From Novosphingobium rosa NBRC 15208 (lineage in GTDB: Bacteria > Pseudomonadota > Alphaproteobacteria > Sphingomonadales > Sphingomonadaceae), in contig NZ_BCZE01000001.1 in NCBI RefSeq assembly GCF_001598555.1, positions 167,980-199,979 on the forward strand: 32,000 nt of DNA. The letters run 5' to 3'. Each line of letters starts with the position of its first letter. The first letter of the stretch is position 1. The translations under genes were made by a program, and so were the position numbers. Under the pieces are notes generated by a model. It was not told where the DNA came from and did no database searches. It saw only the letters and a program-made list of their open reading frames with translations. Positions 8,098 to 30,310 of the stretch are shown here, piece by piece.

Positions 8098-8101
8098 CTG
8101 C

Positions 8102-8557
8102 ATGAAGATGAAATCTGTGATCGATCCGGACGATTTCCCTCAGGATCTGCGCGCTGGCCTGAGCGCGCTGGCCACCGATATGGCAAGCCATGGCACGCGC
8201 CGCGTCGATCCCCCGCGCGAGGTGATGGCCATGCTGGGCGACCGCTGGACATCGCTGATCCTGCAGGTGCTGATGATCGGCATATGGCGCCACGCCGATC
8301 TGAAACGCGCGCTGGCGGCTCTTTCGGAGGAGCAGGCCATCTCGCAGCGGGTGCTCACGCTGAAGCTGCGCGCGCTGGAGCGCGACGGTTTCGTCGCGCG
8401 CCATGTCACGGCGGATGTTCCGCCGCGCGTGTCCTATCGCCTTACCGCGCTGGGGGTGGAGCTGGCGCAGGAAGGCCGCCGGATGATCGATTGGGTGAAC
8501 ACCCGCAGCGCGGCCATCATTCAGGCGCGCACCGCGTTCGACCAGCGCGACGGCTGA
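8102..8557 (+). CDS. HxlR-family winged-helix transcriptional regulator
   Basis: Core ...MAMLGDRWTSLILQVLMIGIWRHADLKRAL...ISQRVLTLKLRALERDGFVARHV...PPRVSYRLTALG is a typical HxlR signature. Start is ambiguous: ATG 8102 was chosen, but ATG 8048 is also open. Divergent from the SDR/oxidoreductase operon. Confidence 0.8.
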   Translation: MKMKSVIDPDDFPQDLRAGLSALATDMASHGTRRVDPPREVMAMLGDRWTSLILQVLMIGIWRHADLKRALAALSEEQAISQRVLTLKLRALERDGFVARHVTADVPPRVSYRLTALGVELAQEGRRMIDWVNTRSAAIIQARTAFDQRDG

Positions 8558-9562: not shown

Positions 9563-9575
9563 GCCCATCCTCTCT

Positions 9576-16807: not shown

Positions 16808-17503
16808 TTACCCCCGCGCCAGTCCAAAAGTCCGAGACGCCGGCGCGATGGGCCCCTGCTTTTCGAGCAACACCGCCGATCCCTCCCCCGTCTTGTAGAA
16901 ACCCTCGTCAAACGCCGCGATTCCCAGGGCCTTGAGATAGGTCTCCAACAGCGGCCCGGTGAAACGCTTCTTGATCGACCTTTCGGAATAACGCGCCACA
17001 TCCTCGAAAGGCTGGACTTCGCCATCGGCCGAAAAGGCCCATTTGCTGCCATCGAAGGAGGCCGAGACCGCACGCAGGATGTTCAGGAAATCGGTCTTGT
17101 GGGGCGCGAAGATTTCCATCACCGTCGCGGGCAGGCGATCACCGCCCCCCTCCTCCGGCACATAGGTCATGCGCAAGGCATCGCAGGCAAGCACTTCGGC
17201 AAGATGAGACACAGCCGAAAAGGCATCCGTTCCCTCATGGCCATTGTCCCAAAAGGTCACCCATTCCGAATGGGTTGGCACGAAGAGGTAGCGGCGGCGC
17301 TCCACGCTGGTCAGGGGCAGCAAGGCCTGCAAGACCTCGCCCAGATCGCCCTGCGGGCGGGATTCCACCAGGGTCACCCCCCGCTTGGCCTGAATTCCTC
17401 CCTGCCAATCGAGGAAAGCGCGGGTGGCCCGCGCCGCATCGCAGCGCAAAAAGCCGATGGTATCGGTGATGGGCGCCAAATTTCCAGAGAAGAGTTCCTG
17501 CAT
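16808..17503 (-). CDS. Hypothetical cytoplasmic protein (231 aa); candidate cognate immunity protein of the Rhs toxin
   Basis: ATG 17503 lies 1 nt after the Rhs stop (17505-17507). No signal peptide or TM segment. No family recognised. Position is typical of rhs immunity genes. Confidence 0.6.
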   Translation of the reverse strand: MQELFSGNLAPITDTIGFLRCDAARATRAFLDWQGGIQAKRGVTLVESRPQGDLGEVLQALLPLTSVERRRYLFVPTHSEWVTFWDNGHEGTDAFSAVSHLAEVLACDALRMTYVPEEGGGDRLPATVMEIFAPHKTDFLNILRAVSASFDGSKWAFSADGEVQPFEDVARYSERSIKKRFTGPLLETYLKALGIAAFDEGFYKTGEGSAVLLEKQGPIAPASRTFGLARG

Positions 17504-17504
17504 C

Positions 17505-20500
17505 TTACCTTACCGTTTTGAGAATCACATGGCCGTCCGGATCGTTGGACTTCAGCCGCACTTCATGGCCCGGCCCGCGTGTCGAACTGGGCGTATCATA
17601 TTCGACATAAACCCTTTTGCCGTTTGCGTCAGTATATTGCAGGTCCGGGCGATTGACACCCACGCGCTCGCCGGCGGCATTGACCTGCTGCTGGTTGACG
17701 CGGAAATCGGTGGCGCCCTCGGCACGCGCTGCGGCAATATCGGCCTGCATCGCCGCGTTCTGCGTCGGGCTCTGGCCGATCGGCCGCCTCAACGACAAAG
17801 CGGCAGGCGGCTTGGGATTGACCGCAATATCCTGCGGCAATCGCGCGGGCGGCGGCGTGGTAAAACGCGATGCGATCAACTTGCCCGCAGGGCCCGCCAC
17901 CAGCCCCATCCCGGTGGCGATGCCCGCTTCCTTCCAGCTCCAGGGGCGATCCTTGCCCATCAGATTGTCGATGCCCCAATCGGCGACATAGCTGGCAAAG
18001 CCGCTGACCGCGCCCACCCCGGCATAAATCGCATAACCGGCAGCGGCAGGCACGAAGAGGAATGGAACCGAGGCCAGCGCGCCAACCAGCGCGCCCTTGG
18101 CGGCGGCGGCCAGAATGCAGGTGAAGCAGAACTCCTTCTGGGTCAGCGCTTCATTCAGGCCAAAGCCCACGGCGCCTGCCGCCGCCCCCGCCGCCAGCAG
18201 AACGAGCGCCGGGGCCGCGATCGGCGCCAGCAGCACGCCCACCGCCACCCCCACGGCAATCGCCGCCACCGCAGAAAGCGCCTGCTGCCACCACAGCCCC
18301 AGCGGGTCGGCGCGATTGAGCGGATCATTGCCGACATAGGCATAGAGGTTGATCCCCCCCGCCACCCCCATGGGATCGCGGCTGAGATAACGCCCCAGCG
18401 CCGGGTCATACATGCGATGGCGATTGTAATGCAGCCCGGTTTCGGCATCGTGATAATGCCCCGGCAGGCGCAACGGCTGATGCCTGCCACCCACCAGAAC
18501 CTGCAGAGCCCCGAAAGCCGAACGCTCGGCCTCCCAGATCACCCGGCCCTGAGCATCGGTCAGGCGGGTCGGCGTACCGATCGGGTCGACATGATAATGG
18601 CAGATGCCCGCAGCATCGCGCTGGAACAGCGGCATGTGGCTGTCCGGCCACCAGGCATAATCGCGGACCTGCCCGGTCGCGCCCGGCTGCCAGCCATCCG
18701 CGCCGGTCTCGATCTCGCGGATCAGCTGCTCGCCCGCCCAGATAAAATGGGTGACGCGCGTGGTGACGCTGCTCTCCACCGTCTTGCGAATACGGCGGCC
18801 CAACGGATCATAGGCGAAGCGGACCACCAGCCCCCGGCCATCCTCCGCGCGGATCAGACGATCGAAGCCATCCCATGCATAGCGCCAATGTACGGCCCCG
18901 CTGCGCTCCACCAGATTGCCGCGCGGATCATAGACGAAATGCTCGGAGCCCTGCGCCACCATCTGGTTCAGCGCATTGAAACGCGCCTCTCCGGCAGGCC
19001 CGGCGATGCGGTTGCCCGCGCCATCATAGGCGAAAGCCTCGCGCGCGCCATCGCCGCGCCGGAGCGCCAGCACCTGCCCCCCGGCATCGTAATCGACCCG
19101 CAGCGCGCCGAGCCGACTGTCCTCGCGCGCCACCAGCCGGTCCTCGGCGTCATAGGCATAGCTTTGTTGGAACGCGGCGCCCTCCGGCGTTTCCAGACGG
19201 CGCCCCGTGGGCAGGCCGACCTGATCCTGCCATGTCGTGGCCACCAGCCCGCCGGGGGAGAGCATCCGCCACCCCGCCTCGTCGGGAGCATAGTCGATGG
19301 CGTGGCGCGCGCCGCTCCAGTCGGTGATGGCGCAGAGGCGCTGATCGGCATCGCGCGCGTAACGCATGGCGCTGCCATCGGGCCAGACGAGGCCAACAAG
19401 CACACCCGCGTCGTCATAGTCATAACGAATGGCCTGATCGCCCAGACGCTGATCGGTCCGCCGTTCCTCGATCAGGCGGCCCTGCGCATCGTAGCGCCAG
19501 GCAAGGTCGATCTCGGCATTGCGCGCCGCCACCAGAAGCCCGCGCGCATCGTAGGTGAAGCTGGCCAAGGCGCCGCCAGCGGCCATCCGGGTAACCTGCC
19601 CCGCCTCATTGCGGCTGAGATCGATCCGCAAGCCATCGGCGCGGATCAGCTGCTGAAGCGCCCCGGCGGGATCGAAGCTGTAGCTTTCGCGCGAGCCATC
19701 GGCATGGGTCTGACCCTCGGGCCTCTGGCCGACGCCATAATGAAAGCGTGTGCTGTTGCCATTGCCGTCGCTGATGGCGGCCAGCGCGTCACCCTGATAG
19801 TCGAAGCGTTCGATCCGCCCCAGCCTGTCGCGCTGGGCGGTGACAAAGCGCCCTTGGGGATCGCGTGCGGAGAGAGCGCCCTCGTCGCGATAGGCCATGC
19901 CACGGAATGTCCCATCGGGAAAATCCATGCGCTCCAGCCGGTTGATGATATCGTGCCGGGCCCGAAACCGTTCACGCCCGCCGCGCGAGACAGAGGCGAT
20001 GTTGCCGCGCCGGTCATAGGCCAGATCAAGCGCCAGCCCCGATGGCATGCGCAAGGCAGCCAGCTTTCCGGAATCACCATGAGCCATATGCCACTGCCGA
20101 CCCAGCGCGCTGGTGACACAGGCAAGCTGTCCGTCGCCACCAAAACTCATGCGCGTGGCGCCGCCGCCGGGGCTGTCGATCAGCAGATCGTCGGACTGCG
20201 GGTCTCGCCGGGGGGGATGGGGCAGGCCCGCAAAACTTTCCGCCAGTCGGTCGCTGCCCGCGCGCCGCCGAAAGGCCGCGATATGGGCCCGGCTCATGCG
20301 TTGGCGCGCGCCCACCGGCAGGCGCGGCGGCAGGCGCAGGATCTCAGGCGCGCGATAGGCCATATGGCCATTACCCGCGCCATCGACGGTGAGGAAGGCC
20401 TGCACCGGGCCAAAGAAAGCGTTCAGCTCATCCACCGTCGAGCTGCGCAGATAGGCGGGCAGCAGGCGCGGGTCGTGAAAGCGAAAGATCCAGTCCTCGC

Positions 20501-20870
20501 CCTCTGGCGAAGAGACCTTGATAAAGCGCCGCAACTGGCGATGCACCGCCTTGAAACCGGCGCTGGAGAGCAGGAAATAGCCCCATGGCTGGCCGTCGAA
20601 ACGGCGCGCGATGTCTTGCGCCATCCCTGCATCGACATGCAGCAGATAAGGCGCCTTGTCGCGATAGGCGGTCGCCGCCCAGCCCTGATAAAGGCAGGCT
20701 CCGCGCCCCGGCCCCGCCGCTTCCGCCAGGCCCGGCACATCGGGCGAAACGCAGCCGTCGATCAGCGCATAAAGCTGCCCCGCCGCCGCCCATCCGGCAA
20801 CCGACTGCGCCCGCACCGGCGCGAAGAGCACCGGTGATGCGTGGTCGGCAGGGGGCGGCGTCTCGGCCAT
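17505..20870 (-). CDS. Rhs-family T6SS effector with N-terminal DUF4123-like adaptor domain and polymorphic C-terminal toxin
   Basis: ATG 20870 with GGGAGA RBS. Residues ~30-165 match DUF4123 hallmarks (LYALIDG..., APYLLHV, WIFRFHDPRLLPAYL, FFGPV). Residues ~280-859 are YD repeats (YDRRGN, FDYQGD, FTYDARG, YDAQGR, YDYDDAG, YAYDAEDR, VDYDAGG, FAYDGAGN, VYDPRGN, FAYDPLGR). The canonical Rhs core end is HYNRHRMYDPALGRYLSRDPMGVAGGINLYAYVGNDPLNRADPLGL. A 262-aa variable tail follows. Confidence 0.9.
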   Translation of the reverse strand: MAETPPPADHASPVLFAPVRAQSVAGWAAAGQLYALIDGCVSPDVPGLAEAAGPGRGACLYQGWAATAYRDKAPYLLHVDAGMAQDIARRFDGQPWGYFLLSSAGFKAVHRQLRRFIKVSSPEGEDWIFRFHDPRLLPAYLRSSTVDELNAFFGPVQAFLTVDGAGNGHMAYRAPEILRLPPRLPVGARQRMSRAHIAAFRRRAGSDRLAESFAGLPHPPRRDPQSDDLLIDSPGGGATRMSFGGDGQLACVTSALGRQWHMAHGDSGKLAALRMPSGLALDLAYDRRGNIASVSRGGRERFRARHDIINRLERMDFPDGTFRGMAYRDEGALSARDPQGRFVTAQRDRLGRIERFDYQGDALAAISDGNGNSTRFHYGVGQRPEGQTHADGSRESYSFDPAGALQQLIRADGLRIDLSRNEAGQVTRMAAGGALASFTYDARGLLVAARNAEIDLAWRYDAQGRLIEERRTDQRLGDQAIRYDYDDAGVLVGLVWPDGSAMRYARDADQRLCAITDWSGARHAIDYAPDEAGWRMLSPGGLVATTWQDQVGLPTGRRLETPEGAAFQQSYAYDAEDRLVAREDSRLGALRVDYDAGGQVLALRRGDGAREAFAYDGAGNRIAGPAGEARFNALNQMVAQGSEHFVYDPRGNLVERSGAVHWRYAWDGFDRLIRAEDGRGLVVRFAYDPLGRRIRKTVESSVTTRVTHFIWAGEQLIREIETGADGWQPGATGQVRDYAWWPDSHMPLFQRDAAGICHYHVDPIGTPTRLTDAQGRVIWEAERSAFGALQVLVGGRHQPLRLPGHYHDAETGLHYNRHRMYDPALGRYLSRDPMGVAGGINLYAYVGNDPLNRADPLGLWWQQALSAVAAIAVGVAVGVLLAPIAAPALVLLAAGAAAGAVGFGLNEALTQKEFCFTCILAAAAKGALVGALASVPFLFVPAAAGYAIYAGVGAVSGFASYVADWGIDNLMGKDRPWSWKEAGIATGMGLVAGPAGKLIASRFTTPPPARLPQDIAVNPKPPAALSLRRPIGQSPTQNAAMQADIAAARAEGATDFRVNQQQVNAAGERVGVNRPDLQYTDANGKRVYVEYDTPSSTRGPGHEVRLKSNDPDGHVILKTVR
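17508..18293 (-). other. Rhs C-terminal toxin region: glycine-zipper/TM-rich segment plus unclassified ~80-aa terminal domain
   Basis: Residues 860-1121. Hydrophobic G/A-rich stretch WWQQALSAVAAIAVGVAVGVLLAPIAAPALVLLAAGAAAGAVGFGL...GIATGMGLVAGPAGKLIA. Pro-rich linker TTPPPARLPQDIAVNPKPPA. Terminal domain ATDFRVNQQQVNAAGERVGVNRPDLQYTDANGKRVYVEYDTPSSTRGPGHEVRLKSNDPDGHVILKTVR. Confidence 0.7.
18294..20033 (-). other. YD/RHS-repeat shell region ending at the DPLGL autoproteolysis motif
   Basis: Residues ~280-859. DPLGL is at residues 855-859 by my count, so the last shell codon ends at nt 18294. Confidence 0.8.
20376..20783 (-). other. DUF4123-like (Tap/Tec T6SS adaptor) domain encoded in cis at the Rhs N-terminus
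   Basis: Residues ~30-165 of the 1121-aa product; motifs as listed for the CDS. Boundaries are approximate. Confidence 0.6.
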
Positions 20871-20879
20871 CGGTCTCCC

Positions 20880-21212
20880 TTATACCGCCACGAAGGGCGC
20901 GCCGCTGGCATAGGCGCGATCGAGCGTGGTGCGACGTGGCGGAGCGCCATCGCCGATCAGCACGGTCACCGCGCCGCTCGCCAGCGTGCCGCCATGGCAG
21001 GAGGTGTCGCCGATGCGGGCGGCCTCATTGTTGCCGATCTTGACTGTCGGGCAGCCCGCCTCGATCTGGGCCTTGCTGCCGCAATCGAGCTGGTCGCCCT
21101 TGCGCGCGGCAGGCTGGCCCATGATCAGCACGGTCGGCTCGCCCGAGACGATGGTCGCCACATTCTTTTGCGGGCAGCTTTCCTGATCGCTTATGCGTGC
21201 GGCGGGCGGCAT
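20880..21212 (-). CDS. PAAR-domain protein (T6SS spike tip), stand-alone, 110 aa
   Basis: Three PAAR-type motifs: MPPAARISD, GQPAARKGD, NEAARIGD. GAVTVLIG end strand, then a ~25-aa C-terminal extension. ATG 21212 with GAGGGAG RBS. Stop lies 9 nt before the Rhs ATG. Confidence 0.9.
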   Translation of the reverse strand: MPPAARISDQESCPQKNVATIVSGEPTVLIMGQPAARKGDQLDCGSKAQIEAGCPTVKIGNNEAARIGDTSCHGGTLASGAVTVLIGDGAPPRRTTLDRAYASGAPFVAV

Positions 21213-21227
21213 GGCGGCATCTCCCTC

Positions 21228-22079
21228 TCAATGCCCATCGGCGGACCAATGCGGCGGATCGGTGGCCAACTTGCGCACCCCATAGGTCGCGCCGACCCGG
21301 TGCAGATCGCCATTGCTGCTGCCCGAGCGCGGGTGGTCGATCCACACGGTCTTGCCCGAGGCATCGGTGACCGTGATAGCCTGATCCCAGCTGATCGTCA
21401 TATCGATGGCCGTCCCATCGATATGGTTCGAGGTGAGCGAGGGCTTGAACCGTATATGGAACAGATTGACCATCGCCTGCGCCGCCTTGCGCGAGGCGCG
21501 CGCATCGCCATGATCCCAGTGAATATCCACCTCCTTGTTCTCGGGCACGGCATCGGGCTTGATCTGGCCATGGGCGACCATCCAGGCGTAATGCATCAGC
21601 CATGCGCGGTTTCGGTTGCGCCGCGTGGAGCTGACCCGCACCGAGGCCGAGGCGCGCCTGAGCATGGCCACGAAACTGTCGACCTGCACCGCGAAGCCGG
21701 GCGCCAGATCGCTGATCCTGTCGCTGTTGGGAAAACGCGCCTGATTGGCGCGAAACCATGCCGCGCCGCTGAGGTTGCGCTGCACCGCCTGCGCCGCCAG
21801 CCTCTCACGCAGCAACGTGGAGGGCGAACTGTCGGACAGGCGGCTGACCATCGCGCCGCCCGGATCGATCCGCCCGCCCGAGGGCATACCCATCACGAAG
21901 GACTGATAACGGCCGATGGCGGTCATGGTTGGTTCGTCCATCATGCCATCGGAGCGCAGCACGCCGAGGCCCAGATCGCCCACGCGTGTGTTGAGGCCCT
22001 GCTGGATGGCCGCGACATCCTCCCGCGCATTGACGCCACCACGACCGACAGAAGAGGCGAGAGTGATGTCGGGCATCAT
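21228..22079 (-). CDS. LAS/M15-type zinc peptidase (VanY-like) with N-terminal peptidoglycan-binding domain, no signal peptide; candidate T6SS cell-wall effector
   Basis: N-terminus GRGGVNAREDVAAIQQGLNTRVGDLGLGVLRSDGMMDEPTMTAIGRYQ resembles PG_binding_1. Exact SxHxxGxAxD motif SNHIDGTAID (nt 21402-21431). Upstream SSTRRNRNRAW and downstream DPPHWSADGH fit M15 Zn-ligand/catalytic positions. GGAGG RBS. ATGA overlap with the upstream gene. Confidence 0.75.
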   Translation of the reverse strand: MMPDITLASSVGRGGVNAREDVAAIQQGLNTRVGDLGLGVLRSDGMMDEPTMTAIGRYQSFVMGMPSGGRIDPGGAMVSRLSDSSPSTLLRERLAAQAVQRNLSGAAWFRANQARFPNSDRISDLAPGFAVQVDSFVAMLRRASASVRVSSTRRNRNRAWLMHYAWMVAHGQIKPDAVPENKEVDIHWDHGDARASRKAAQAMVNLFHIRFKPSLTSNHIDGTAIDMTISWDQAITVTDASGKTVWIDHPRSGSSNGDLHRVGATYGVRKLATDPPHWSADGH

Positions 22080-22393
22080 TCGGCCTCCGTGTCGTAGCGC
22101 GCCAGCACAGCCATGATCCTGGGTTGCCCGGCATGGGCTTTTTTGAGTCGCACCAGCTGCGTATCGGTGCCGCTGCAGTCGCGCTTGACCTGCTGTTCAA
22201 GCTGCCGGGCGCGGGCACCATCATAGGGCTCCTCGCCCCTTGCGTGGTCGCAGCTTTCGCGGCGGGTTATGAAGGCTTGCACGTCAGCAGGCATGGCCGC
22301 GCCCTGAGGTGAGGCCGCCAAGGCCCCGCCGGCATGGCAGGCCAGCAGCGCGACGGGCAGCGCCCATCCTGTCTTGTGGCGGAGAGCACTCAT
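22076..22393 (-). CDS. Small exported protein, possible lipoprotein (105 aa); candidate immunity for the M15-like effector
   Basis: Signal sequence MSALRHKTGWALPVALLAC with a lipobox-like LLAC. The mature part has two further Cys (RRESCDHARGEEPYD...KRDCSG). Its stop overlaps the effector ATG (ATGA). Confidence 0.55.
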   Translation of the reverse strand: MSALRHKTGWALPVALLACHAGGALAASPQGAAMPADVQAFITRRESCDHARGEEPYDGARARQLEQQVKRDCSGTDTQLVRLKKAHAGQPRIMAVLARYDTEAE

Positions 22394-22398: not shown

Positions 22399-22902
22399 CT
22401 ACATATCCAGAACTTTAGCCTGCTTTTCGTAGAAAGCGGCTGAAGTAGCGTTGCCCTGCGCCTTGTAACGCCGGCTGACAGCCTTGGCGGCAAGGGTGGC
22501 GATCTGGAAGGCATGGTCACGCTCGTCAAAGGTAACCTCGCCCTGCCCGACATCGCCGTTCACAAAGCGCCCGACCATAAAACCGCCGGTGTTGGCGCGG
22601 GCGCTGGCGAAATCGATCACCCCCATGGTGGGGATGCCAGCGCGGAACTCGCCATAAAAGGCCTCGCCGCTGGTCTGACCGTCCCGCCGCCGCAGCATGC
22701 CCAGCCCAGAGGCCTTGCCGCCGGGGCAATCGCCGGTCCAATACGTCGGACCGGCGGGCAAGGAGAGAGGCGCCACAAAGCGGCACCAGGAGACAGGGTC
22801 ATGCGACCAGACCAGCGCAGCGGCTGGAGCCTGCGCACGCAGCGCGGCGGCGCCGCCAACACAGGCGGCAGCCAGCGCAAGGTGGAGGCAGGCGCCTCTC
22901 AT
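22399..22902 (-). CDS. Secreted MORN-repeat-like protein (167 aa), function unknown
   Basis: ATG 22902 gives signal peptide MRGACLHLALAAACVGGAAALRAQA. YWTGDCPGGKASGLGMLRRRDGQTSGEAFYGEFRAGIPTMGV resembles MORN repeats. The longer ORF to 23121 would overlap clpV. Confidence 0.55.
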   Translation of the reverse strand: MRGACLHLALAAACVGGAAALRAQAPAAALVWSHDPVSWCRFVAPLSLPAGPTYWTGDCPGGKASGLGMLRRRDGQTSGEAFYGEFRAGIPTMGVIDFASARANTGGFMVGRFVNGDVGQGEVTFDERDHAFQIATLAAKAVSRRYKAQGNATSAAFYEKQAKVLDM

Positions 22903-22930: not shown

Positions 22931-25627
22931 TTACTCCACCAGGTTCTCAAGCTGACCGGAGAGCTCAACGGGTTCGGGCTGCGCTTGCCTGTCGGTAAAG
23001 GCATAATGGAAGCCGTCCGGCCCTGCCGAGACTTCGATCCCCGAGACTTCTTCGCCCCGCATCTGGCGTTCCAGCAGCTGGATCGACATTTCGGGCAGCA
23101 GCGTGTTGGTGAGGATCGCATCGATCATGCGCCCGCCCGAGGCCACCTCATTGCAGCGCGAAACGATCAGGTCGACAACCGATGCAGTGAACGTCAGCGC
23201 GATCTTGTGGTTCTCGGCGATACGCTTCTCGATGCGCTTCAACTGCAGACGCACGATGCCCGAGAGCATGTCGGGGCTCAGCGGATAATAGGGAAGCACC
23301 AGCAGGCGGCCCAACAGGGCGGGCGGGAAGGTTTTCAGCAGATCGGGCCGCAGGGCCCCCGCCAGCGCTTCGGGATCGGGCTTCATCTCCTCGTCCTCCG
23401 ACAAGGTCATCACCAGATCGGTTCCAACATTGGAGGTCAGCAGGATGATGGTGTTCTTGAAATCGATAAAGCGGCCTTCGCTGTCATTCATGAAGCCCTT
23501 GTCGAAGACCTGAAAAAACATCTCATGGACGTCAGGATGGGCCTTCTCCACCTCATCGAGCAACACCACCGAATAGGGACGGCGACGAACCGCCTCGGTA
23601 AGAACCCCTCCCTGCCCGTAACCGACATAGCCCGCAGGCGCGCCCTTCAGCGTCGAGACGGTATGCGCCTCCTGAAATTCGCTCATGTTGATGACGATCA
23701 GCGAGTCATCGCCCGAGAACAGCAGTTCGGCCAGCGCATGCGCCGTCTCGGTCTTCCCCACGCCCGAGGGGCCGCAGAGCATGAAGACGCCGACCGGCTT
23801 GTTGGGATTGTCCAGCTTGGCCCGGCTGGTCTGGATGCGCTTAGCGATGGCATCCATGGCATGGTCCTGCCCGACCACCCGCGCCTTCAACTGATCGGCA
23901 ATGGTCAGCACGCTCTGGATCTCGTCCTTGACCATGCGGCCCACCGGAATGCCGGTCCAGTCGCCCACCACCGCCGCAATGGCATCCTGATCGACCACGC
24001 CAAAGACCATCGGTGTATCGGCCTGCACAGCGCGCATTTCGGCCAGAGCGGTTTCGAGCGCGGCCTTCAACGGGGCCTCATCCTGGCCCCCGTCCTGCCG
24101 CGCGTTGCGAAGGGCATCACGGGCAGCAGCCACACCGGCCAGCGCGTCCTTCTCCCGCTCCCACTTAGCGGTGACTGTCTCCAGCGCCTCGCGCGCAGCG
24201 GCAATCTCTTCCTCGATGCGTTCCAGGCGATCATCGCTGCGGTAATGATCCGAGGCCTCGCGAGAGACAACGTCACGCTCGATCTCAAGCAGTTCGAGGC
24301 GACGGCGGCGATCCTCCACCATGGCGGGCGTGGCATGCTGCGAGACCGCCACACGCGCGCAAGCCGTATCGAGCAGGCTCACCGCCTTGTCCGGCAATTG
24401 CCGCGCGGGCACATAACGCTGCGACAGCAGCACCGCCGCCGCCACAGCCTCATCCAGCACGGTGACGCCATGATGCTTCTCCATCATCGGCGCGACCGAG
24501 CGGATCATGTCGATGGCCTTGCCGGTCTCGGGCTCGCCCACATCGACGGTCTGGAAACGGCGGGTGAGCGCCGGATCTTTCTCGAAATACTGGCGATATT
24601 CGGCATAAGTCGTGGCCGCGATGGTGCGCAGCCGCCCGCGCGCCAGCGCAGGTTTGAGCAGATTGGCCGCATCCCCCGTGCCCGCCTGACCGCCCGCGCC
24701 GATCAGCGTATGTGCCTCATCGATGAACAGGATGATCGGCACCGGCGAGCTTTCCACCTCATCGATCACCTGACGCAGGCGCTTCTCGAACTCGCCCTTC
24801 ACCCCGGCCCCGGCCTGCATCAGCCCGATGTCGAGCGAGCGCACGGTCACACCCTCCAGCGCGGGGGGCACATCGCCATCGGCGACGCGGCGGGCGAAAC
24901 CCTCGGCCACCGCCGTCTTGCCCACGCCTGCTTCGCCGACAAGGATCGGATTGTTCTGGCGGCGGCGCAGCAGAATATCGACCACCTGCCGGATTTCCGC
25001 ATCGCGCCCGATGATGCGGTCGATCTCTCCAGCGCGGGCCCTGGCGGTCAGATCGACGGAGTATTTGGCCAGCGCCTCGCCACGCCCGGCGGCAACAGTG
25101 CCCGGATCGCCCTCGCCCGCCGCAGGCGCCGGAGCGCTGCCTTCGCTGGTTTCAGCCGAGGCGGCGATCATCGCGTCAAAGCTGTTGCCCAGCTTATCGG
25201 CGCTGACCTTGCGCCACTCGCCGCTCAGCACATAGAGCGCATTGCGCAGGGTCGGTGTCTTCAGCATGCCATAGAACAGATGGCCCGAGCGCACCCGGCT
25301 CGCCCCGAATTGCAGCGAGGCATAGAGCCAGCCCTTCTCGATGGCTTCCTCGATCTGCGGCGCGAAATCGGAAATGGCGCTGGCCCCGCGCGGCAGGGCA
25401 TCGAGCGCCGCCACCACATCCTGCGTGAGCCTTGCATCGTCCAGCCCGAAGCTGCTGCGGATCGCGGCGAGATCGTTGCGCGGATCCTGCAGCAAAATAT
25501 GCACCCAGTGGACCAGCTCGACATAGGGATTGCCGCGCATCTTGCAGAAGCTGGTCGCGGTCTCGATGGCCTTGAGCGGCACCGGGCCAAGGCGCTCGAA
25601 CAGGGCCGTACGGCTGATCTCGGACAT
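22931..25627 (-). CDS. tssH: T6SS AAA+ ATPase ClpV/TssH
   Basis: 898 aa. ClpV-type N-domain (MSEISRTALFERLGPVPLKAIETATSFCKMRGNPYVELVHWVHILLQ). Two Walker A boxes (GEAGVGKTAV, GPSGVGKTETA). Walker B as ILFIDEAH and VVLLDEVEKAH. Confidence 0.95.
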   Translation of the reverse strand: MSEISRTALFERLGPVPLKAIETATSFCKMRGNPYVELVHWVHILLQDPRNDLAAIRSSFGLDDARLTQDVVAALDALPRGASAISDFAPQIEEAIEKGWLYASLQFGASRVRSGHLFYGMLKTPTLRNALYVLSGEWRKVSADKLGNSFDAMIAASAETSEGSAPAPAAGEGDPGTVAAGRGEALAKYSVDLTARARAGEIDRIIGRDAEIRQVVDILLRRRQNNPILVGEAGVGKTAVAEGFARRVADGDVPPALEGVTVRSLDIGLMQAGAGVKGEFEKRLRQVIDEVESSPVPIILFIDEAHTLIGAGGQAGTGDAANLLKPALARGRLRTIAATTYAEYRQYFEKDPALTRRFQTVDVGEPETGKAIDMIRSVAPMMEKHHGVTVLDEAVAAAVLLSQRYVPARQLPDKAVSLLDTACARVAVSQHATPAMVEDRRRRLELLEIERDVVSREASDHYRSDDRLERIEEEIAAAREALETVTAKWEREKDALAGVAAARDALRNARQDGGQDEAPLKAALETALAEMRAVQADTPMVFGVVDQDAIAAVVGDWTGIPVGRMVKDEIQSVLTIADQLKARVVGQDHAMDAIAKRIQTSRAKLDNPNKPVGVFMLCGPSGVGKTETAHALAELLFSGDDSLIVINMSEFQEAHTVSTLKGAPAGYVGYGQGGVLTEAVRRRPYSVVLLDEVEKAHPDVHEMFFQVFDKGFMNDSEGRFIDFKNTIILLTSNVGTDLVMTLSEDEEMKPDPEALAGALRPDLLKTFPPALLGRLLVLPYYPLSPDMLSGIVRLQLKRIEKRIAENHKIALTFTASVVDLIVSRCNEVASGGRMIDAILTNTLLPEMSIQLLERQMRGEEVSGIEVSAGPDGFHYAFTDRQAQPEPVELSGQLENLVE

Positions 25628-26659
25628 TTACAGTTCCCCCAAGGATGCGTGAGCCGGTTTCATGCGGCGCAGATGCGCGTCGGACCGGATGATGTCGGAT
25701 GGTTTCGGGCTGAGCCAACCCGTCCAGCCCAGCCGCGTGCGGCCATCGAGGCGCGCGGGCGGCACTTCGCTTTGCGGAATATCGATGCGGATATCCCATT
25801 CCAGATGGCTGGGCGCAAAGGCATCGAGCGCTTCCGAGGCAATGGTGAAGCGCGGCTGGCCGGGCAGCAGTTTTTCGAACTCGCCAAAGTTGCGCGCGCC
25901 GATCACCACGCTGAAACTGTCCGAGGCGGTACGGATGCGGCTGCCCAGCACGACATCCCGCCCCAAAGTGGCGAAACCCTTGCCGAGGCGGCTGCGGTCT
26001 TCTGCCTCGATCGCGCGCCAGCGCGGCTGATATTCGATGACGCGCACCGGCTGGCCGAGCAGATGGCCCAGCGAATCCTCGATGCCGATGGCGCTGCGCC
26101 GCGAGGCGAAGAGCGAGGCATAATGCACCCGCGCCCGTGCCGGAAAAGCCGCGTGATCGGAAACGTCTTCCGTCGCGCCCGACAGGAACGCCAGATAAGC
26201 GCCAAAGCGGTCATCGGCGGGGCGGTCGGCCTGCACCGCAGGTTGGGAATCGGCCCATGCGCGGTAGAAGAACTGCAACATGCGGTTCGCCAGCACATCC
26301 AGCCAGCGACCGAAGGGCCTCTGCCTGGCATAGCGATGCTCGAACGCCGCGAATTCGGTCAGATGCACCGGCAGCGGCCCCATTGGGCCGGTCAGCCCCA
26401 GCCAATAGCCGTTGATCTGCGCGCGCTGGTGGCGAAACTCCACCGAATGCAGCGTGGGCGCGGGAAAATGCATCGCCGGGATTTGCGCCAGATCGACGAT
26501 ACTCTGATCCGGGCGACGCGCTTCACCCAGACGCGGCAGATCGGGCGCGCGCGCCTCCGCACCGCGCACCGCCGGGAACATCCCGAAGAGGCGCGCCTTC
26601 TCCCTGATCCTTTCGAGGAAGGTCAGATGGTGTGGCGGCGACCCATGCGCGGCGGCCAT
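25628..26659 (-). CDS. tssG: T6SS baseplate subunit TssG
   Basis: 343 aa, directly abutting the clpV start. Size and position after tssF fit TssG. The N-terminal ...LFGMFPAVRGAEA... stands in for the usual F-F-Q-A-V-R-L-L-E block. 37-nt overlap with the tssF end. Confidence 0.85.
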   Translation of the reverse strand: MAAAHGSPPHHLTFLERIREKARLFGMFPAVRGAEARAPDLPRLGEARRPDQSIVDLAQIPAMHFPAPTLHSVEFRHQRAQINGYWLGLTGPMGPLPVHLTEFAAFEHRYARQRPFGRWLDVLANRMLQFFYRAWADSQPAVQADRPADDRFGAYLAFLSGATEDVSDHAAFPARARVHYASLFASRRSAIGIEDSLGHLLGQPVRVIEYQPRWRAIEAEDRSRLGKGFATLGRDVVLGSRIRTASDSFSVVIGARNFGEFEKLLPGQPRFTIASEALDAFAPSHLEWDIRIDIPQSEVPPARLDGRTRLGWTGWLSPKPSDIIRSDAHLRRMKPAHASLGEL

Positions 26660-28479
26660 TGCGCGACATCCCCCTCGTTCGGACTATGGAAGTGGCATTC
26701 GGTGAACGCGTTGATGCTGGCGAATTCGGCCAGAAAGCGCTCCAGAACGGCGGTGAAGAGGAACATGCCGCTCTTGTCGAAAGCGGCGTCGTCCAGCTTG
26801 ATGCGAATGCGATGGCCGCGCGCCAGCGCCATGCGGTCCAGCCCCGGCACGCGGCGCATCACCTTGGTTGAACGGATCGCCAGAACGCCGTCGATCTGGC
26901 GGCGCAGGGCGGCTTCATCCTGCTGGCCGTAAAGCGCCAGATGGTCACGCAGGGCGGAAGGGTCGTCATGATCTTCCGAGGCCAGCGTGGCGTAATTGGG
27001 GGTAAGATGGGCAATCACCCGCCACGCCGCATCGCCCAGCCCCAGCGGCGGGCGCGGGCGCGTGGGCGCACGCAGCACCGTGACGGCGCGAACCGGAACG
27101 CCCGAAACGGTGAAATGCTGGTCGCCGCGAAACGACAGCAATTCGGGCAATTCGCGGTTGGTGACCAGCGCGCGCACCGCCAGCTCATGCACATCGTCCA
27201 GCCGCGTAGCATCGCCAGGCGAGGTCAGGCTGAGCCACGTATCGGTACCGACATATTCGCTGCGGCGGCGCAGGCGTCTTTCGCGGGTGGAGAGGCGGCG
27301 CGGGCGCAGCTGCGTGGAGTAGAACAAAGCCTCGCGCCAGTCATAGAGCAAGGCTCCGAAAGCATAGAGCGGCGCGACGGTCTTGGGATCGAGATTGTCC
27401 CGCGCATAGGCCTTGACGTCGAGCAGGCGGAACACCTCGAAATCATTGCGCCTGGTGCGGTCCGGGATGACATGGAATTCATGCTCATGCGGGCGGACCT
27501 GCACGCGGTCGAGCTGCTTTTCGAACAGATTGATCGCGGGGGTGGCGAAAAGCCTGAAGTTCGTCTTGTCCACCGCGCGCGCCAGCGTGGACGAGGCGCG
27601 CGAGAACAGCAGCACCACATCGCACATCTGCGGCGAGGCGCGAAAGGCCCGATCCAGTCCCTTCAACCGCGTGAACAGAAACCTTTCGGGGCACGCGAAA
27701 TATTCCGACAACAGCCGATAGCCGCGAAAGGAGCGCTGCTCTGCCGGAAGCAGGGCCTCATCATCCTCGAAGCCGATCTGTTCGGGCAGCGGCAGCGCCA
27801 TCCAGGGCGCATTGGCCGGGGCATCCGCCGAGCGCGCCAGCACACCCAGCGTCTCGCCGATGATCTGGCGGTAGAGTTCATTGGGCACAGCCTCTGCGCC
27901 ATGGAGATGGATCGCCAGATCCTTCACCTTGATCTGCGGCAGATCGGCGCCCGGCGTGGCGGCAAAGCGCAGGCGCAGGCCAGCCTCGGCGCGGATCTCG
28001 CCCGAACCGGCGTAGGACGCCACCGCCGCGCGAGTGGAAAGATACTCCGCCTCGACGATCGCCAGCGGCCACAGGGTGACATCGTGTCCGGTGCGGAACA
28101 TCACCGGCGCATTGTCCTGTGTGTTGGCCACCAGTTGCGTGCCGCGCGGCACATGATGGCCCGCCAGCAGGTTCTGCTCGCCCTGCTTGGGTTCGAAACC
28201 GGCGATGCAGATCGAGGGCATCGGGGCCAGATAATGCGGCTGGATCGCATGCAACAGATGCGAGGTGAACTCGGGATATTGATCCGCGAGCTTGAGCTGC
28301 ACCCGCGCGCCCAGAAAAGCCACGCCTTCCAGCAGGCGCTCGACGTAGGGGTCGGGGTCGGTCGGCGTCTTGAGGCCAAGACGGCCCGCGACGGTCTCAT
28401 GCTCCTCGCCGAATTCGCGCGCGGCTTCGCGCAGATAGGCCAGCTCATCGTTGTAATGGCGCAGCAGGCGCGGGTCCAT
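26623..28479 (-). CDS. tssF: T6SS baseplate subunit TssF
   Basis: 618 aa beginning MDPRLLRHYNDELAYLREAAREFGEEH, the hallmark TssF N-terminus. Located between tssE and tssG. Confidence 0.95.
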   Translation of the reverse strand: MDPRLLRHYNDELAYLREAAREFGEEHETVAGRLGLKTPTDPDPYVERLLEGVAFLGARVQLKLADQYPEFTSHLLHAIQPHYLAPMPSICIAGFEPKQGEQNLLAGHHVPRGTQLVANTQDNAPVMFRTGHDVTLWPLAIVEAEYLSTRAAVASYAGSGEIRAEAGLRLRFAATPGADLPQIKVKDLAIHLHGAEAVPNELYRQIIGETLGVLARSADAPANAPWMALPLPEQIGFEDDEALLPAEQRSFRGYRLLSEYFACPERFLFTRLKGLDRAFRASPQMCDVVLLFSRASSTLARAVDKTNFRLFATPAINLFEKQLDRVQVRPHEHEFHVIPDRTRRNDFEVFRLLDVKAYARDNLDPKTVAPLYAFGALLYDWREALFYSTQLRPRRLSTRERRLRRRSEYVGTDTWLSLTSPGDATRLDDVHELAVRALVTNRELPELLSFRGDQHFTVSGVPVRAVTVLRAPTRPRPPLGLGDAAWRVIAHLTPNYATLASEDHDDPSALRDHLALYGQQDEAALRRQIDGVLAIRSTKVMRRVPGLDRMALARGHRIRIKLDDAAFDKSGMFLFTAVLERFLAEFASINAFTECHFHSPNEGDVAQWPPRMGRRHTI

Positions 28480-28485: not shown

Positions 28486-29019
28486 TTACTCCCGCACATC
28501 GACGGCGACGGTTTCCGGGTCCACCTCGGTCCGGAATTTTACCGGCATGGCCTGAGCGGCAGCCGTGATGTCAGCGCGGATCACAAAGGTGATGGTGTTG
28601 GGCTTGTCATGGCTTTCGGCCGGTTCGACACTGAGCGAATCCTCGCCCAGACGCGGCTCATACTGGCGGATCGCCTTGCGGATTTCCCGCGCGCGGTTGA
28701 GGATGGCCCGCCGTGTCAGCGGCTTGCCCGCCAGATCGCTGAGCCCGTAATTCAGCACCGAGCTTTGCACATGCGGATAGGGCTCCAGATCATGGAGCGC
28801 TTCCAGATTGGTGGTGTTGAGCAACCAGGCAAGCTCGCGCCGGATCGTGCTGCGCAGCGCAGCCTCATTGAAGCGGTCGAGCCGGGGCACTGTGTAATGC
28901 CGGAACTTCTCGCGCGAGACCTCGGGCGTATCCGAATGGATGTCTTTCAGCCCGGAAATGTCGATGTCCGCCACAAGCTTGTCGAACAGCGTGGGCGTGA
29001 GACGGTGACTGACGGCCAT
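28486..29019 (-). CDS. tssE: T6SS baseplate subunit TssE (gp25-like)
   Basis: MAVSHRLTPTLFDKLV...IRRELAWLLNTTNLEA...VLNYGLSDLAGK is a typical GPW/gp25 signature. ATG 29019 is preferred over the TTG at 29025 used by the ORF track. Confidence 0.9.
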   Translation of the reverse strand: MAVSHRLTPTLFDKLVADIDISGLKDIHSDTPEVSREKFRHYTVPRLDRFNEAALRSTIRRELAWLLNTTNLEALHDLEPYPHVQSSVLNYGLSDLAGKPLTRRAILNRAREIRKAIRQYEPRLGEDSLSVEPAESHDKPNTITFVIRADITAAAQAMPVKFRTEVDPETVAVDVRE

Positions 29020-29021
29020 GG

Positions 29022-29807
29022 TCAATCGAAGCTCAGGTCGCGCAGGCTCAGCAGCCCGCGATCCTCGCCATTCGAAAGCGTCCAGAGGCGCTGGCCCGAC
29101 CCCAAATCGCCAAAGTCATGCCCCCGCCATTGCGTTTCACGGGCGAGGCGCTCTCTATTGTCCTGTGCAGCCTCGCTGCCCGGATAGCGGGCAGGCAGGA
29201 AACCCGCCACCGACTGCCCGGATTTGAACGCAATCTGCACCGGATACCACACCAGATCGCGCAGATCGCGCGGCCCCTCGCTGGTGATGCTGGCGACCTG
29301 ATCGAAAGGCTGGAGCCCATAGCGCCCGCCGATGATGGCCTCGAAAGCAGGGCCGAAGCGCGCATCGGCATCGGCGATCCACCCGAAACTTTCACCGTTG
29401 AAACGACCGGGAGCATCGGGCGCGGCATCGAAAGCAGCATCGCGCGCGGCAATAGCGTCATGCGCGCGGCCATTGGTCAGATGATGCAGCGCATCGATGA
29501 CACCATCGCACCAGTCGGACGCCACATGCTGACGCGCCCTTTGACGCCCGGCAAAGACCTCCGCACGTTCAAGCTCGGCATCGATCGCCTGACCATAGGC
29601 GGTTGCCAGCATCTGCGCTTCACCCGAAAGCTGGGCAAGGGCCTGCAATTGCTTGCGAGCCTTGTCCCACTCGCCGGCCACAGCCAGCAACTGGAACAGG
29701 AACATGCGCGCCGCCTGATCGGCGGGCTGCGCCCGGACGGTATCGACCAATGCGGCACGCGCACCTTCGACATCGCCCGAACGCAGCAAAGTATCGGCAT
29801 CCGCCAT
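29022..29807 (-). CDS. tagJ: T6SS accessory protein TagJ (ImpE/SciE family)
   Basis: 261 aa. N-terminal TPR-like LLRSGDVEGARAALVDTVRAQPADQAARMFLFQLLAVAGEWDKA. C-terminal FGWIADADARFGPAFEAIIGGRYGLQPF...DLVWYPVQI...LPARYPGS matches ImpE conservation. Confidence 0.85.
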   Translation of the reverse strand: MADADTLLRSGDVEGARAALVDTVRAQPADQAARMFLFQLLAVAGEWDKARKQLQALAQLSGEAQMLATAYGQAIDAELERAEVFAGRQRARQHVASDWCDGVIDALHHLTNGRAHDAIAARDAAFDAAPDAPGRFNGESFGWIADADARFGPAFEAIIGGRYGLQPFDQVASITSEGPRDLRDLVWYPVQIAFKSGQSVAGFLPARYPGSEAAQDNRERLARETQWRGHDFGDLGSGQRLWTLSNGEDRGLLSLRDLSFD

Positions 29808-29815: not shown

Positions 29816-30310
29816 TCAGCTGGCGACGTTCTGGCGAATGTCGTAGCTGGCAGTGATGACGCCGCCATCCTTGCCGCCGCTGCGGTTCTGCGGCTGATAG
29901 TCGAAGGTCACCTTGGCAGTGTTGAACACGACCGATTCCATGATGGCATCGCCGTGGCTGGCGCCCTGATTGTCCACTGAAGAAACGATGACGTCTTCCA
30001 GCGTGATCTTGTAATAGACCAGCGGATTGGTGCCATCACCGGCCTTCTGCGAGTAAATGATGACCTGCGGAATATGACGGCCCGAAGCGCAGGCGCTGAA
30101 CAGTTTGGCCGAAGACTTGTCGACTTCCTTGGTGATCGAGATGTCGCGGATTTCTGCCTTGCCCGAACCGCCACCGGCACCGCCGGTGTGGAAGGAACCG
30201 TGCTGGGCCGCGCCGAAGTTGAAGGAAATGATATCGATTTCCTTCTCGTGACCCTTCTTCTGACTTTCACCGTCGATCCCGTCGATCTTCAGGAACAGAT
30301 CAACTGCCAT
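29816..30310 (-). CDS. hcp: Hcp (TssD) T6SS inner tube protein
   Basis: MAVDLFLKIDGIDGESQKKGHEKEIDIISFNFGA... is a textbook Hcp N-terminus. 164 aa. AGGGGA RBS. Confidence 0.95.
   Translation of the reverse strand: MAVDLFLKIDGIDGESQKKGHEKEIDIISFNFGAAQHGSFHTGGAGGGSGKAEIRDISITKEVDKSSAKLFSACASGRHIPQVIIYSQKAGDGTNPLVYYKITLEDVIVSSVDNQGASHGDAIMESVVFNTAKVTFDYQPQNRSGGKDGGVITASYDIRQNVAS

Follow-up and report, generated by a model that had tools for sequence, protein, structure and literature searches.

A gene pair in the T6SS cluster of Novosphingobium rosa NBRC 15208 probably encodes an antibacterial T6SS cargo effector (ORF283) and its immunity protein (ORF105), judging from the features of the two sequences and their genes. 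The pair is most likely a new family of an already familiar weapon type and not a new kind of system. The analysis covered the window, i.e. the whole stretch of 32,000 nt at positions 167,980-199,979 on the forward strand of contig NZ_BCZE01000001.1 (assembly GCF_001598555.1). Such an effector/immunity pair had been proposed in the original prediction, and the proposal is supported in silico by a signal-less LAS peptidase encoded at a T6SS cargo site, a translationally coupled partner with an export signal, and orphan copies of the partner in other genomes. Gene structure, motifs, fold, conservation, linkage and the orphan immunity copies were obtained directly from the sequence and from the results of the tools.

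The gene pair in the T6SS operon

Using Pfam and the list of open reading frames, we determined the gene order of the minus-strand operon as tssC-hcp-impE-tssE-tssF-tssG-clpV-ORF167-ORF105-ORF283-PAAR-Rhs, which places the pair between clpV and PAAR as anticipated (Table 1). The genes are co-directional with intergenic gaps of -4 to 28 nt, the GC content is uniform along the operon and no convincing internal terminator was seen inside it. The cargo region, a variable part of the T6SS cluster in which ORF283 is located, begins 28 nt past clpV. The gene preceding ORF283 was expected to encode a lipobox-like protein and to overlap the peptidase start codon, and both features were found. The TGA of ORF105 overlaps the ATG of ORF283 (ATGA; ...GCC GAA TGA / ATG ATG CCC), a GGAGG is located six bases upstream, and ORF283 is translationally coupled to ORF105.

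Table 1. Positions of the genes, domains and motifs in the window
Feature	Position	Strand	Description
Rhs toxin, N-terminal DUF4123 domain	17505..20870	-	next cargo gene; Pfam DUF4123, RHS_repeat, RHS
PAAR spike-tip protein	20880..21212	-	Pfam PAAR_motif E 1.5e-18; 15 nt downstream of ORF283
ORF283	21228..22079	-	283 aa; candidate T6SS cargo effector; PG-binding domain and LAS-type zinc peptidase
Catalytic domain of ORF283	21231..21782	-	residues 100-283; divergent LAS / VanY-like fold
D274-P-P-H277-W	21246..21260	-	predicted general base (Asp) and third zinc ligand (His); D-x-x-H variant
SNHIDGTAID	21402..21431	-	residues 217-226; SxHxxGxAxD exact; H219 and D226 predicted zinc ligands
RNRNR, R154-R158	21606..21620	-	conserved Arg; candidates for the transition-state-stabilising Arg of LAS enzymes
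PG_binding_1-like domain of ORF283	21825..22061	-	about residues 7-85; Pfam below threshold, relatives match
ORF105	22076..22393	-	105 aa; candidate periplasmic immunity protein
Four-helix core of ORF105	22100..22288	-	residues 36-98; invariant C48-D-H50-x-R-G-E54 and C73
Export signal of ORF105	22316..22393	-	about residues 1-26; lipobox-like LLAC19, then ALA/AS
ORF167	22399..22902	-	exported protein; candidate orphan immunity gene
clpV/tssH	22931..25627	-	Pfam; last core gene of the tssC-hcp-impE-tssE-tssF-tssG-clpV operon

The PAAR gene was considered as a conserved neighbour and rejected, as the pair closes the cluster with no PAAR or Rhs gene after it in three loci (L089-L091) and in several others. 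The conserved feature of the pair is its nearness to clpV, not to PAAR. Neither a vgrG nor a dedicated adaptor for ORF283 was found in the window, and ORF283, at 31 kDa, is large for the Hcp lumen; both points count against the effector reading.

Related Sphingomonadaceae clusters carry a sister module, in which a PG_binding_1+Peptidase_M15_4 protein (319 aa) is followed by an ORF167-like protein. ORF167 is 52 % identical to the gene after the M15_4 peptidase in locus L001. It may be an orphan immunity gene whose effector, of the PG_binding_1+Peptidase_M15_4 type, is absent from the window; the window lost that peptidase and kept ORF167. The sister module shares with the ORF105-ORF283 pair the domain architecture with homologous PG-binding domains at the N-terminus (44 % identity over 62 aa), the SNHxxGTAxD motif, the clpV-proximal cargo region and an exported neighbour. 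Unlike in the pair, its effector gene comes first, its putative immunity protein is of the ORF167 type and its catalytic domain is canonical (Pfam E 9e-11). PADLOC and PHROGs gave no match for ORF283, ORF105 or ORF167, and with PADLOC silent a role in anti-phage defence was rejected.

Domains, motifs and fold of ORF283 and ORF105

The start codon of ORF283 is the first one after an in-frame stop. The N-terminus is hydrophilic with no hydrophobic segment, and it folds into a PG-binding domain in the AF2 model (pLDDT 96.7). Neither inspection nor the model revealed a signal peptide, in agreement with the predicted absence of a Sec signal. The N-terminal PG_binding_1-like domain, also predicted, stays below the Pfam threshold of 23 bits when ORF283 is searched alone (14.5 bits, E 0.04), while 36 out of 40 family members match PG_binding_1 (best 1.3e-9). 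Moreover, hhalign aligned the N-terminus of the family with the Pfam-passing PG_binding_1 domain of the M15_4 protein from L001 with a probability of 98.8 %. In total, ORF283 has 248 homologues. Its catalytic domain alone has 883 representative homologues (clusters) and is always C-terminal. In other proteins this domain is joined to eCIS_core together with an amidase or lysozyme domain, to SLT, to phospholipase-type and to protease domains, as a toxin module would be, and this favours the effector reading.

The motif of LAS enzymes, defined as SxHxxGxAxD (PMC6354061), had been reported from ORF283 as exact and flanked by typical elements. We confirmed SNHIDGTAID at residues 217-226, SSTRRNRNR at 150-158 and DPPHWSADGH at 274-283. 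By a rough estimate, the chance of SxHxxGxAxD occurring in a random protein of 283 aa is about 1e-4. Conservation in 135 diverse homologous domains reaches 99 % for H219, D226 and R158 and 98 % for D274, H277 and R154. R154 and R158 are placed just after the first core strand of the AF2 model, and by analogy with LysB4 Arg50 and VanX Arg71 (PMC6354061) both are candidates for the counterpart of the LAS arginine.

The original prediction assigned ORF283 to the VanY/M15-type peptidases. The LAS fold and the catalytic motifs agree with this, but no curated M15 model recognises the protein. We found no match above the gathering threshold to VanY (PF02557), Peptidase_M15_4 (PF13539) or Peptidase_M15 (PF01427), and no curated Pfam or NCBIfam model matches the catalytic domain. 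Searches of PDB by phmmer and by two profiles (full-length, and a deeper one of the catalytic domain) also returned no match for the catalytic domain. Among 40 relatives searched against Pfam there were two weak M15_4 matches (best E 0.013) and one M15 match (0.19), and the distant member P0237 reaches the Pfam VanY threshold across the catalytic domain (25.0 bits). Full-length hhalign of the ORF283 family against the M15_4 alignment recovered the shared PG-binding domain alone. After trimming the alignments to the catalytic domains, the comparison of ORF283 with Pfam-recognised M15_4 proteins gave an E-value of 6.5e-5 with the motifs in register: SNHIDGTAID aligned with SNHSWGTAIDL, and the D274-P-P-H277 segment with E-D-A-M-H-F.

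Foldseek searches of PDB with the ORF283 model returned LAS peptidases for all of the top 15 matches. The list includes Ply500 (the best structural match), LdcB, ChiX, VanY, VanXYc, LysB4, LysECD7, VanX and a Streptomyces DD-peptidase. Probabilities were 0.8-1.0 for most of the 15, with two at 0.35 and 0.47, the E-values were marginal (4e-3 to 0.4) and the TM-scores normalised on the target ranged from 0.30 to 0.50. As sequence searches found nothing, the M15/LAS assignment rests on the fold, the motifs, the domain-only hhalign and the one bridging member. ORF283 is a divergent LAS branch outside those curated Pfam families.

The closest known enzymes by fold are the L-alanoyl-D-glutamate endopeptidases of the Ply500, LysB4, ChiX and T5 type (LAS, MEROPS M15C) together with VanX, VanY and LdcB. 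In common with them, ORF283 has SxHxxGxAxD, predicted zinc ligands spaced H-x6-D and an acidic residue before the third His, and it has upstream candidates for their Arg. With catalytic roles mapped from LysB4, VanX and ChiX (PMC6354061), D274 and H277 are the counterparts of D129/H132 in LysB4, D130/H133 in Ply500 and E181/H184 in VanX, and the D-x-x-H variant is that of the endopeptidases. In contrast to these enzymes, ORF283 carries an additional segment of about 55 residues, among them the conserved W188-D-H190, between the Arg and the His motif, and towards the solved LAS enzymes it displays no detectable sequence-profile similarity and TM-scores of about 0.35-0.5.

ORF105 begins with a basic n-region and a hydrophobic core, in which LLAC19 fits a lipobox and is followed by an AxA site (ALA/AS). 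In the family, the N-terminus is hydrophobic in 106 of 114 members and the lipobox cysteine is present in 57 of 114. These sequence features firmly predict export of ORF105 and make a lipoprotein probable; the latter is graded lower because the cysteine is absent from the near relative P0124. The core was modelled by AF2 with pLDDT of at least 95. No meaningful neighbour in PDB was found by fold or sequence, and the best Foldseek match, the periplasmic metal sensor CnrX (E 2.1), was treated as chance. A search with the single sequence recovered four proteins, and a profile search extended the family to at least 427 clusters, all annotated as hypothetical.

Distribution of the pair and of its separate members

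An ORF105-family gene is located directly upstream of the peptidase gene in all 19 T6SS-linked loci examined (the window, L001, L005-L016, L071, L055 and L089-L091). These pairs occupy two positions in the cluster, the clpV end and the tssK end. About 22 further loci, not adjacent to T6SS core genes, have this arrangement too, and some of these pairs come after a patatin-like gene. Whenever both genes are present they are adjacent, with gaps of -4 to +55 nt across about 41 effector-bearing loci. Every member of the window's clade is T6SS-linked and has an exported protein as its partner.

The remaining loci show a different situation. Relatives of the peptidase were found in 94 loci, and 49 of these lacked both an ORF105-family gene within 10 kb and a nearby T6SS gene; therefore the family cannot be a T6SS effector everywhere. 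The partner-less relatives are single genes in conserved chromosomal synteny with intact catalytic residues, and they form a vertically inherited clade adjoining purB or a bacteriophytochrome gene. In the NJ tree this clade branches from within the partner-bearing lineages and so looks derived.

Partner genes were also found on their own in loci covering 9 kb on each side. Azorhizobium caulinodans (L092; AP009384.1, about 2.75 Mb) and Agrobacterium sp. (L093) each carry an ORF167-like and an ORF105-like gene in tandem and no peptidase gene within 9 kb, and Herminiimonas (L094) has a lone ORF105-like gene. Such peptidase-less copies are typical of orphan immunity genes.

Candidate function, alternatives and implications

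If ORF283 and ORF105 are an effector and its immunity protein, the peptidase would be made in the producer's cytoplasm and, because it has no export signal, would never meet the producer's own cell wall. The T6SS would deliver it to the periplasm of an adjacent Gram-negative cell. There, the N-terminal PG_binding_1 domain would keep the enzyme on the sacculus, and the C-terminal LAS-type domain would hydrolyse the peptide stem using the predicted zinc ligands H219, D226 and H277, D274 as the water-activating base, and R154 or R158 as the oxyanion clamp. The bond cleaved may be L-Ala-D-Glu, as weakly hinted at by the D-x-x-H signature and by Ply500 being the closest structural match. Protection would come from ORF105 exported, probably as a lipoprotein, to the periplasm of the producer, where its four-helix core, presumably braced by a disulfide, may bind and block the enzyme arriving from sister cells. 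One might speculate that the invariant CDHxRGE loop plugs the zinc site.

The scheme resembles known systems. In Tae4-Tai4, in other Tae/Tai pairs and in Tse1/Tsi1, a signal-less peptidoglycan hydrolase is encoded in a T6SS cluster together with an immunity protein that has a signal peptide. The order of tai before tae in Agrobacterium, named in the original prediction, is consistent with atu4346 (immunity, Tai4) and atu4347 (effector Tae4, toxic only in the periplasm) of Agrobacterium tumefaciens (PMC4096383); there, as in our pair, the effector gene directly follows the immunity gene. However, Tae1-4 are small cysteine amidases of the NlpC/P60 or CHAP type, whereas ORF283, predicted to be a zinc peptidase of the LAS type, has a PG-binding domain in addition. 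ORF283 contains no cysteine and thus no Cys-His pair of the NlpC/P60 or CHAP fold, and its fold matches are all LAS; ORF105 also sets the pair apart, as it matches no solved protein by sequence or fold. The earlier remark that M15-type peptidases stand outside the classic Tae/Tge families overstated the novelty, because the accessory TagX and predicted M15 effectors had already linked them to the T6SS. M15 effectors have been predicted in Acinetobacter, Neisseria and among WHIX proteins (PMC6833914, PMC10210955, PMC12135965). The predicted LAS-type effectors comprise Tse4/Tpe4AB (LysM+M23), Tpe14AB (LysM+M15_3+M23), Neisseria LysM-M15 and WHIX-fused 'PG_binding1 + Peptidase M15' proteins, and they resemble ORF283 in that each is a wall-targeting metallopeptidase that has a wall-binding module and an immunity neighbour with a signal peptide (PMC6833914, PMC10210955, PMC12135965). 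Unlike ORF283, they are larger, linked to VgrG or WHIX and built of curated M15/M23 domains; they belong to another sequence family with other immunity proteins, and the M15 examples are predictions in the literature read.

TagX of Acinetobacter, an accessory L,D-endopeptidase needed for Hcp secretion that cleaves L-Ala-D-Glu (PMC5061870), and TagY, an M15 protein of S. fredii (PMC11872809), are LAS/VanY-superfamily peptidases encoded in T6SS clusters, and the template used to model TagX was Ply500, the best structural match of ORF283 as well. It seems quite unlikely that ORF283 is a similar accessory, opening the producer's peptidoglycan for T6SS assembly with ORF105 as its periplasmic regulator or partner. 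TagX and TagY are membrane-anchored (two transmembrane segments in TagX) or exported (a signal peptide in TagY), act on the producer's wall, lack an immunity partner and are recognised by PF13539. ORF283 differs from them: it has an exported partner, no PF13539 match, and a folded PG-binding domain in place of the N-terminal transmembrane anchor of TagX. With no signal peptide or transmembrane segment it cannot reach its own periplasm by Sec. Furthermore, ORF283 sits in the variable cargo region, the pair is found also far from any T6SS gene, ORF105-type partners are orphaned in other genera, and fusion proteins with several toxin domains also contain the catalytic domain. The 49 partner-less loci with their conserved synteny and intact catalytic residues, together with one source that names a relative D-Ala-D-Ala dipeptidase, could instead suggest a housekeeping wall or muropeptide-recycling peptidase that happens to lie beside the T6SS cluster, being cytoplasmic or released by a non-T6SS route. 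We regard this as unlikely for ORF283, as it is hard to see what a PG-binding domain would do in the cytoplasm, the constant T6SS linkage and pairing in the window's clade speak against it, and the nested partner-less clade looks derived.

The route of delivery could also differ. The fusion of the catalytic domain to eCIS_core (DUF4157) in P0131 and P0174 and the pairs not beside T6SS core genes, including those after the patatin-like gene, would suit a toxin/immunity pair delivered by a contractile injection system, T4SS or vesicles, with the T6SS neighbourhood being incidental. This is very unlikely for the window, where the pair shares one operon with clpV and PAAR-Rhs and no eCIS or T4SS genes were found; the T6SS linkage also recurs in 19 independent loci at two cluster positions. 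The domain order and the absent signal peptide bring to mind the endolysins of Gram-negative phages, and the matches of ORF283 in the Foldseek viral library are M15B enzymes and endolysins. A remnant phage endolysin is nevertheless highly improbable and was rejected, as ORF283 belongs to no PHROG family, in contrast to the neighbouring-family M15_4 protein, which does match PHROG, and no phage genes are present in the window. The stable pairing of the enzyme with an exported protein also speaks against it.

Returning to the effector/immunity reading, we found no experimentally characterised M15/VanY-like T6SS cargo effector in the literature searched, and so ORF283 could be the first one. The pair leaves the understanding of how T6SS effectors act unchanged. 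If confirmed, it would extend the T6SS repertoire by an effector catalytic domain that is widespread (883 representative clusters) and has no Pfam model, and by a new immunity family with a four-helix core (at least 427 clusters, all of hypothetical proteins). The same domain is reused in multi-domain toxins of other injection systems.

It is possible, although we put little confidence in it, that the family records a transition between weapon and housekeeping enzyme. The partner-bearing, often T6SS-linked lineages would then be ancestral in the tree, and the nested Sphingomonas clade might represent the other state, keeping an intact signal-less PG-binding LAS peptidase at a fixed site with no immunity gene. 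Were this clade still secreted, it would provide a T6SS wall toxin without dedicated immunity, e.g. in a producer with chemically resistant peptidoglycan; otherwise, it would represent an effector that was domesticated for a new role in the cell. Just as tentatively, the ORF167-like/ORF105-like tandem of Rhizobiales might be an acquired defence islet against T6SS attack by Sphingomonads. Confirmation of the pair would also aid annotation in Sphingomonadaceae and in other bacteria living in soil or with plants and would yield a candidate cell-wall enzyme active on Gram-negatives, and the orphan ORF105/ORF167 genes would become a marker for who attacks whom in rhizosphere communities.

ORF283 as a predicted, divergent LAS-type peptidase

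The coordinates of the candidate effector ORF283 and of the candidate immunity gene ORF105, as well as their position between clpV and PAAR, proved to be as originally predicted. The SNHIDGTAID motif is present in ORF283 at residues 217-226 together with the flanking elements, SSTRRNRNR and the C-terminal DPPHWSADGH, and no hydrophobic N-terminus was seen, in line with the expected lack of a Sec signal. In Pfam the sole match was to PG_binding_1 and stayed below threshold (E 0.04), and NCBIfam, phmmer against PDB and two profile searches of PDB gave no match to the C-terminal part. At the family level the N-terminal PG_binding_1 assignment is solid, with 36 of 40 members matching and an hhalign probability of 98.8 %.

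The AF2 model of ORF283 built from 40 homologues (pLDDT 96.7) was compared with PDB using Foldseek, and the best 15 matches were all LAS enzymes (Ply500, LdcB, ChiX, VanY, VanXYc, LysB4, LysECD7, VanX and a Streptomyces DD-peptidase). The probabilities were mostly 0.8-1.0, with marginal E-values of 4e-3 to 0.4 and TM-scores on the target of 0.30-0.50. A viral structure library returned M15B enzymes and endolysins. With residues 100-283 as query, a search of 1.84 billion representative proteins yielded 883 relatives, and positions conserved in at least 95 % of 135 diverse full-length domains include R154, R158, W188, H190, H219, D226, D274 and H277. In LysB4, Ply500, VanX and ChiX the LAS catalytic set consists of SxHxxGxAxD, whose His and Asp bind zinc, another His further on with an acidic base three residues before it, and an upstream Arg (PMC6354061), and the conserved positions of ORF283 appear to map onto it. 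L-Ala-D-Glu endopeptidases have the form D-x-x-H and VanX has E-x-x-H (PMC6354061); on the strength of D-x-x-H and of the best structural match, we tentatively favour L-Ala-D-Glu as the bond that ORF283 would cleave.

Domain-only hhalign of the ORF283 family against Pfam-recognised M15_4 proteins of sister loci (E 6.5e-5, probability 64 %) pairs SNHIDGTAIDM with SNHSWGTAIDL and DPPHW with EDAMHF, and the catalytic domain of the homologue P0237 (43 % identical) scores high enough to pass the threshold of Pfam VanY. As fold, conservation, catalytic mapping and these bridges to curated families agree, we conclude that the C-terminal domain is a divergent LAS-fold peptidase, which upholds the earlier LAS/M15-type assignment while placing the protein outside every curated M15 family. 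A Tae-type cysteine amidase was excluded because ORF283 contains no cysteine.

Among the matches of the 883-relative search, the catalytic domain is also the C-terminal module of large proteins (P0131, P0174, P0166, P0249, P0227 and P0257), fused to eCIS_core (DUF4157) with Amidase_2 or with a pesticin-type lysozyme, to SH3 and SLT, to a phosphoesterase, to trypsin and lipase, or to Peptidase_C92. It behaves like a toxin module, and the architecture is polymorphic-toxin-like. Beside the pair in locus L091, the opposite strand (10964-12468) carries a 157-aa gene and encodes a 337-aa PG_binding_1+Phage_lysozyme protein; the latter is a third wall hydrolase on the same PG-binding N-terminus, and the two genes are probably another effector/immunity pair.

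ORF105 and the T6SS operon

On the minus strand of the window, a single T6SS operon begins at about 31.9 kb and runs to 17.5 kb. The spacings from clpV to the Rhs gene are, in order, 28, 5, -4, 15 and 9 nt; an ATGA overlap joins ORF105 to ORF283, and GGAGG lies 6 bases 5′ of the ORF283 ATG. The GC content is uniform (0.65-0.70) and no convincing minus-strand terminator was found within this stretch.

Genes of the T6SS operon in the window
Gene	Position	Strand	Description
tssC	30409-31899	-	core
hcp	29816-30310	-	core
impE/tagJ	29022-29807	-	accessory
tssE	28486-29025	-	core
tssF	26623-28479	-	core
tssG	25628-26659	-	core
clpV	22931-25627	-	last core gene
ORF167	22399-22902	-	exported; no Pfam match
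ORF105	22076-22393	-	candidate immunity
ORF283	21228-22079	-	candidate effector
PAAR	20880-21212	-	spike tip
DUF4123-Rhs	17505-20870	-	1121 aa

Despite the PAAR and Rhs cargo genes, no vgrG was found anywhere in the 32-kb window (1-32000), so the spike gene must be encoded elsewhere. PAAR is not a conserved neighbour of the pair among related loci, and ORF283, at 31 kDa, is large for Hcp. DUF4123 is usually a separate adaptor or chaperone gene; here it is fused N-terminally to the Rhs toxin, as in the 1219-aa Rhs of L001. The DPxGL core of the window Rhs is followed by a long hydrophobic stretch and a C-terminal toxin without assignment, for which ORF231 (16808-17503) could be the immunity gene.

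From 427 genomes with relatives, mainly Sphingomonadaceae and a few Betaproteobacteria, 80 loci were fetched, and further loci were added by exact-protein look-up. Where an ORF105 homologue occurs within 10 kb, it is always directly upstream of the peptidase gene on the same strand, with a gap of -4 to +55 nt. This includes 19 of 19 T6SS-linked loci, located at the clpV end (the window, L001, L005-L016, L071, L089-L091) or at the tssK-tssL-tssM end (L055/L085). At least 427 clusters make up the ORF105 family; their annotation is hypothetical throughout, and the family has an invariant core C48-D-H50-x-R52-G-E54 ... R61 ... C73 ... D77. AF2 gives a confident four-helix bundle with no PDB relative by sequence or fold. 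A hydrophobic N-terminus is present in 106 of 114 members and a lipobox cysteine in 57. ORF105 is predicted to be exported, as claimed before; it is probably a lipoprotein, as LLAC19 fits a lipobox, but one near relative lacks the cysteine. A cytoplasmic enzyme coupled to a small periplasmic protein is the classic hallmark of T6SS pairs that act in the periplasm, such as atu4347/atu4346 (PMC4096383).

In Sphingobium (L018, L047, L083/L087, ~7070-9975) the pair lies directly 3′ of a 779-aa patatin+DUF3376 protein, and the N-terminus of the ORF105 homologue is extended by a long segment rich in Pro and Ala (~185 aa); at L056 and L064 a peptidase gene without a partner is immediately adjacent to the patatin gene. 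Many related T6SS clusters (L001 6308-7738; also L006-L011, L016, L089 and L090) have kept, between clpV and the pair, a gene for a 476-aa methyltransferase whose winged-helix domain is of the PKMT type (protein lysine methyltransferase); the window lacks it.

Candidate orphan immunity genes and alternative roles

Directly after clpV, L001 and L005-L012 carry an additional module that encodes a 319-aa PG_binding_1+Peptidase_M15_4 protein (Pfam E 9e-11) and, next to it, an ORF167 homologue (52 % identity). The window lacks this peptidase gene, clpV and ORF167 being a mere 28 nt apart, but has kept ORF167, which therefore looks like an orphan immunity gene whose effector was lost. An immunity gene outlasting its effector is the usual fate. 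ORF167-like and ORF105-like genes also occur in tandem in Azorhizobium caulinodans ORS 571 (AP009384.1, L092 8412-9321) and Agrobacterium sp. LMR679 (L093 8504-9327), where neither type of peptidase is encoded within 9 kb, and Herminiimonas glaciei has a lone ORF105-like gene (L094 9001-9306). The tandem may have been acquired as an immunity islet that counters T6SS toxins of Sphingomonads. Orphan copies in other soil bacteria are expected if the proteins protect against incoming toxins, and together with the parallel M15_4 module they strengthen the immunity reading.

The most serious alternative is an accessory enzyme like TagX/TagY, because T6SS clusters encode M15 peptidases with a known role in remodelling the wall of the producing cell itself (PMC5061870, PMC11872809, PMC13584744), TagX being the M15 accessory enzyme described in PMC5061870. 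However, the known ones are anchored in the membrane or exported and lack an immunity partner, whereas ORF283 has no signal peptide, sits within the variable cargo region and belongs to a type also found together with its partner at non-T6SS sites. The peptidase family as a whole may be housekeeping, as 49 of 94 loci encode an intact, signal-less relative with no ORF105-family or T6SS gene within 10 kb (L004, L017, L022, L025-L034, L036-L040, L042-L044, L046, L048-L054, L056-L069, L072, L074, L078, L081, L082, L084; match at ~10001 in most). These form a nested clade with intact catalytic residues and conserved synteny, usually just 3′ of either purB or a heme oxygenase-bacteriophytochrome operon, but the window's own clade is always T6SS-linked and partnered. 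Another delivery route for the pair and a phage origin of ORF283 are weakly supported.

T6SS effector/immunity pairs against the cell wall are well known. Effectors of the LAS superfamily exist in the M23 group (Tse4/Tpe4AB), and M15-type ones have been predicted (Tpe14AB, Neisseria LysM-M15 and WHIX-fused 'PG_binding1 + Peptidase M15'); our literature search found no paper on this peptidase family or on the ORF105 family. The in silico evidence makes it likely that, as first proposed, ORF283 is a T6SS cell-wall effector with ORF105 as its immunity protein. Among the leads, the chromosomal clade that lacks the partner and the orphan immunity tandem of Rhizobiales are the more unusual ones.
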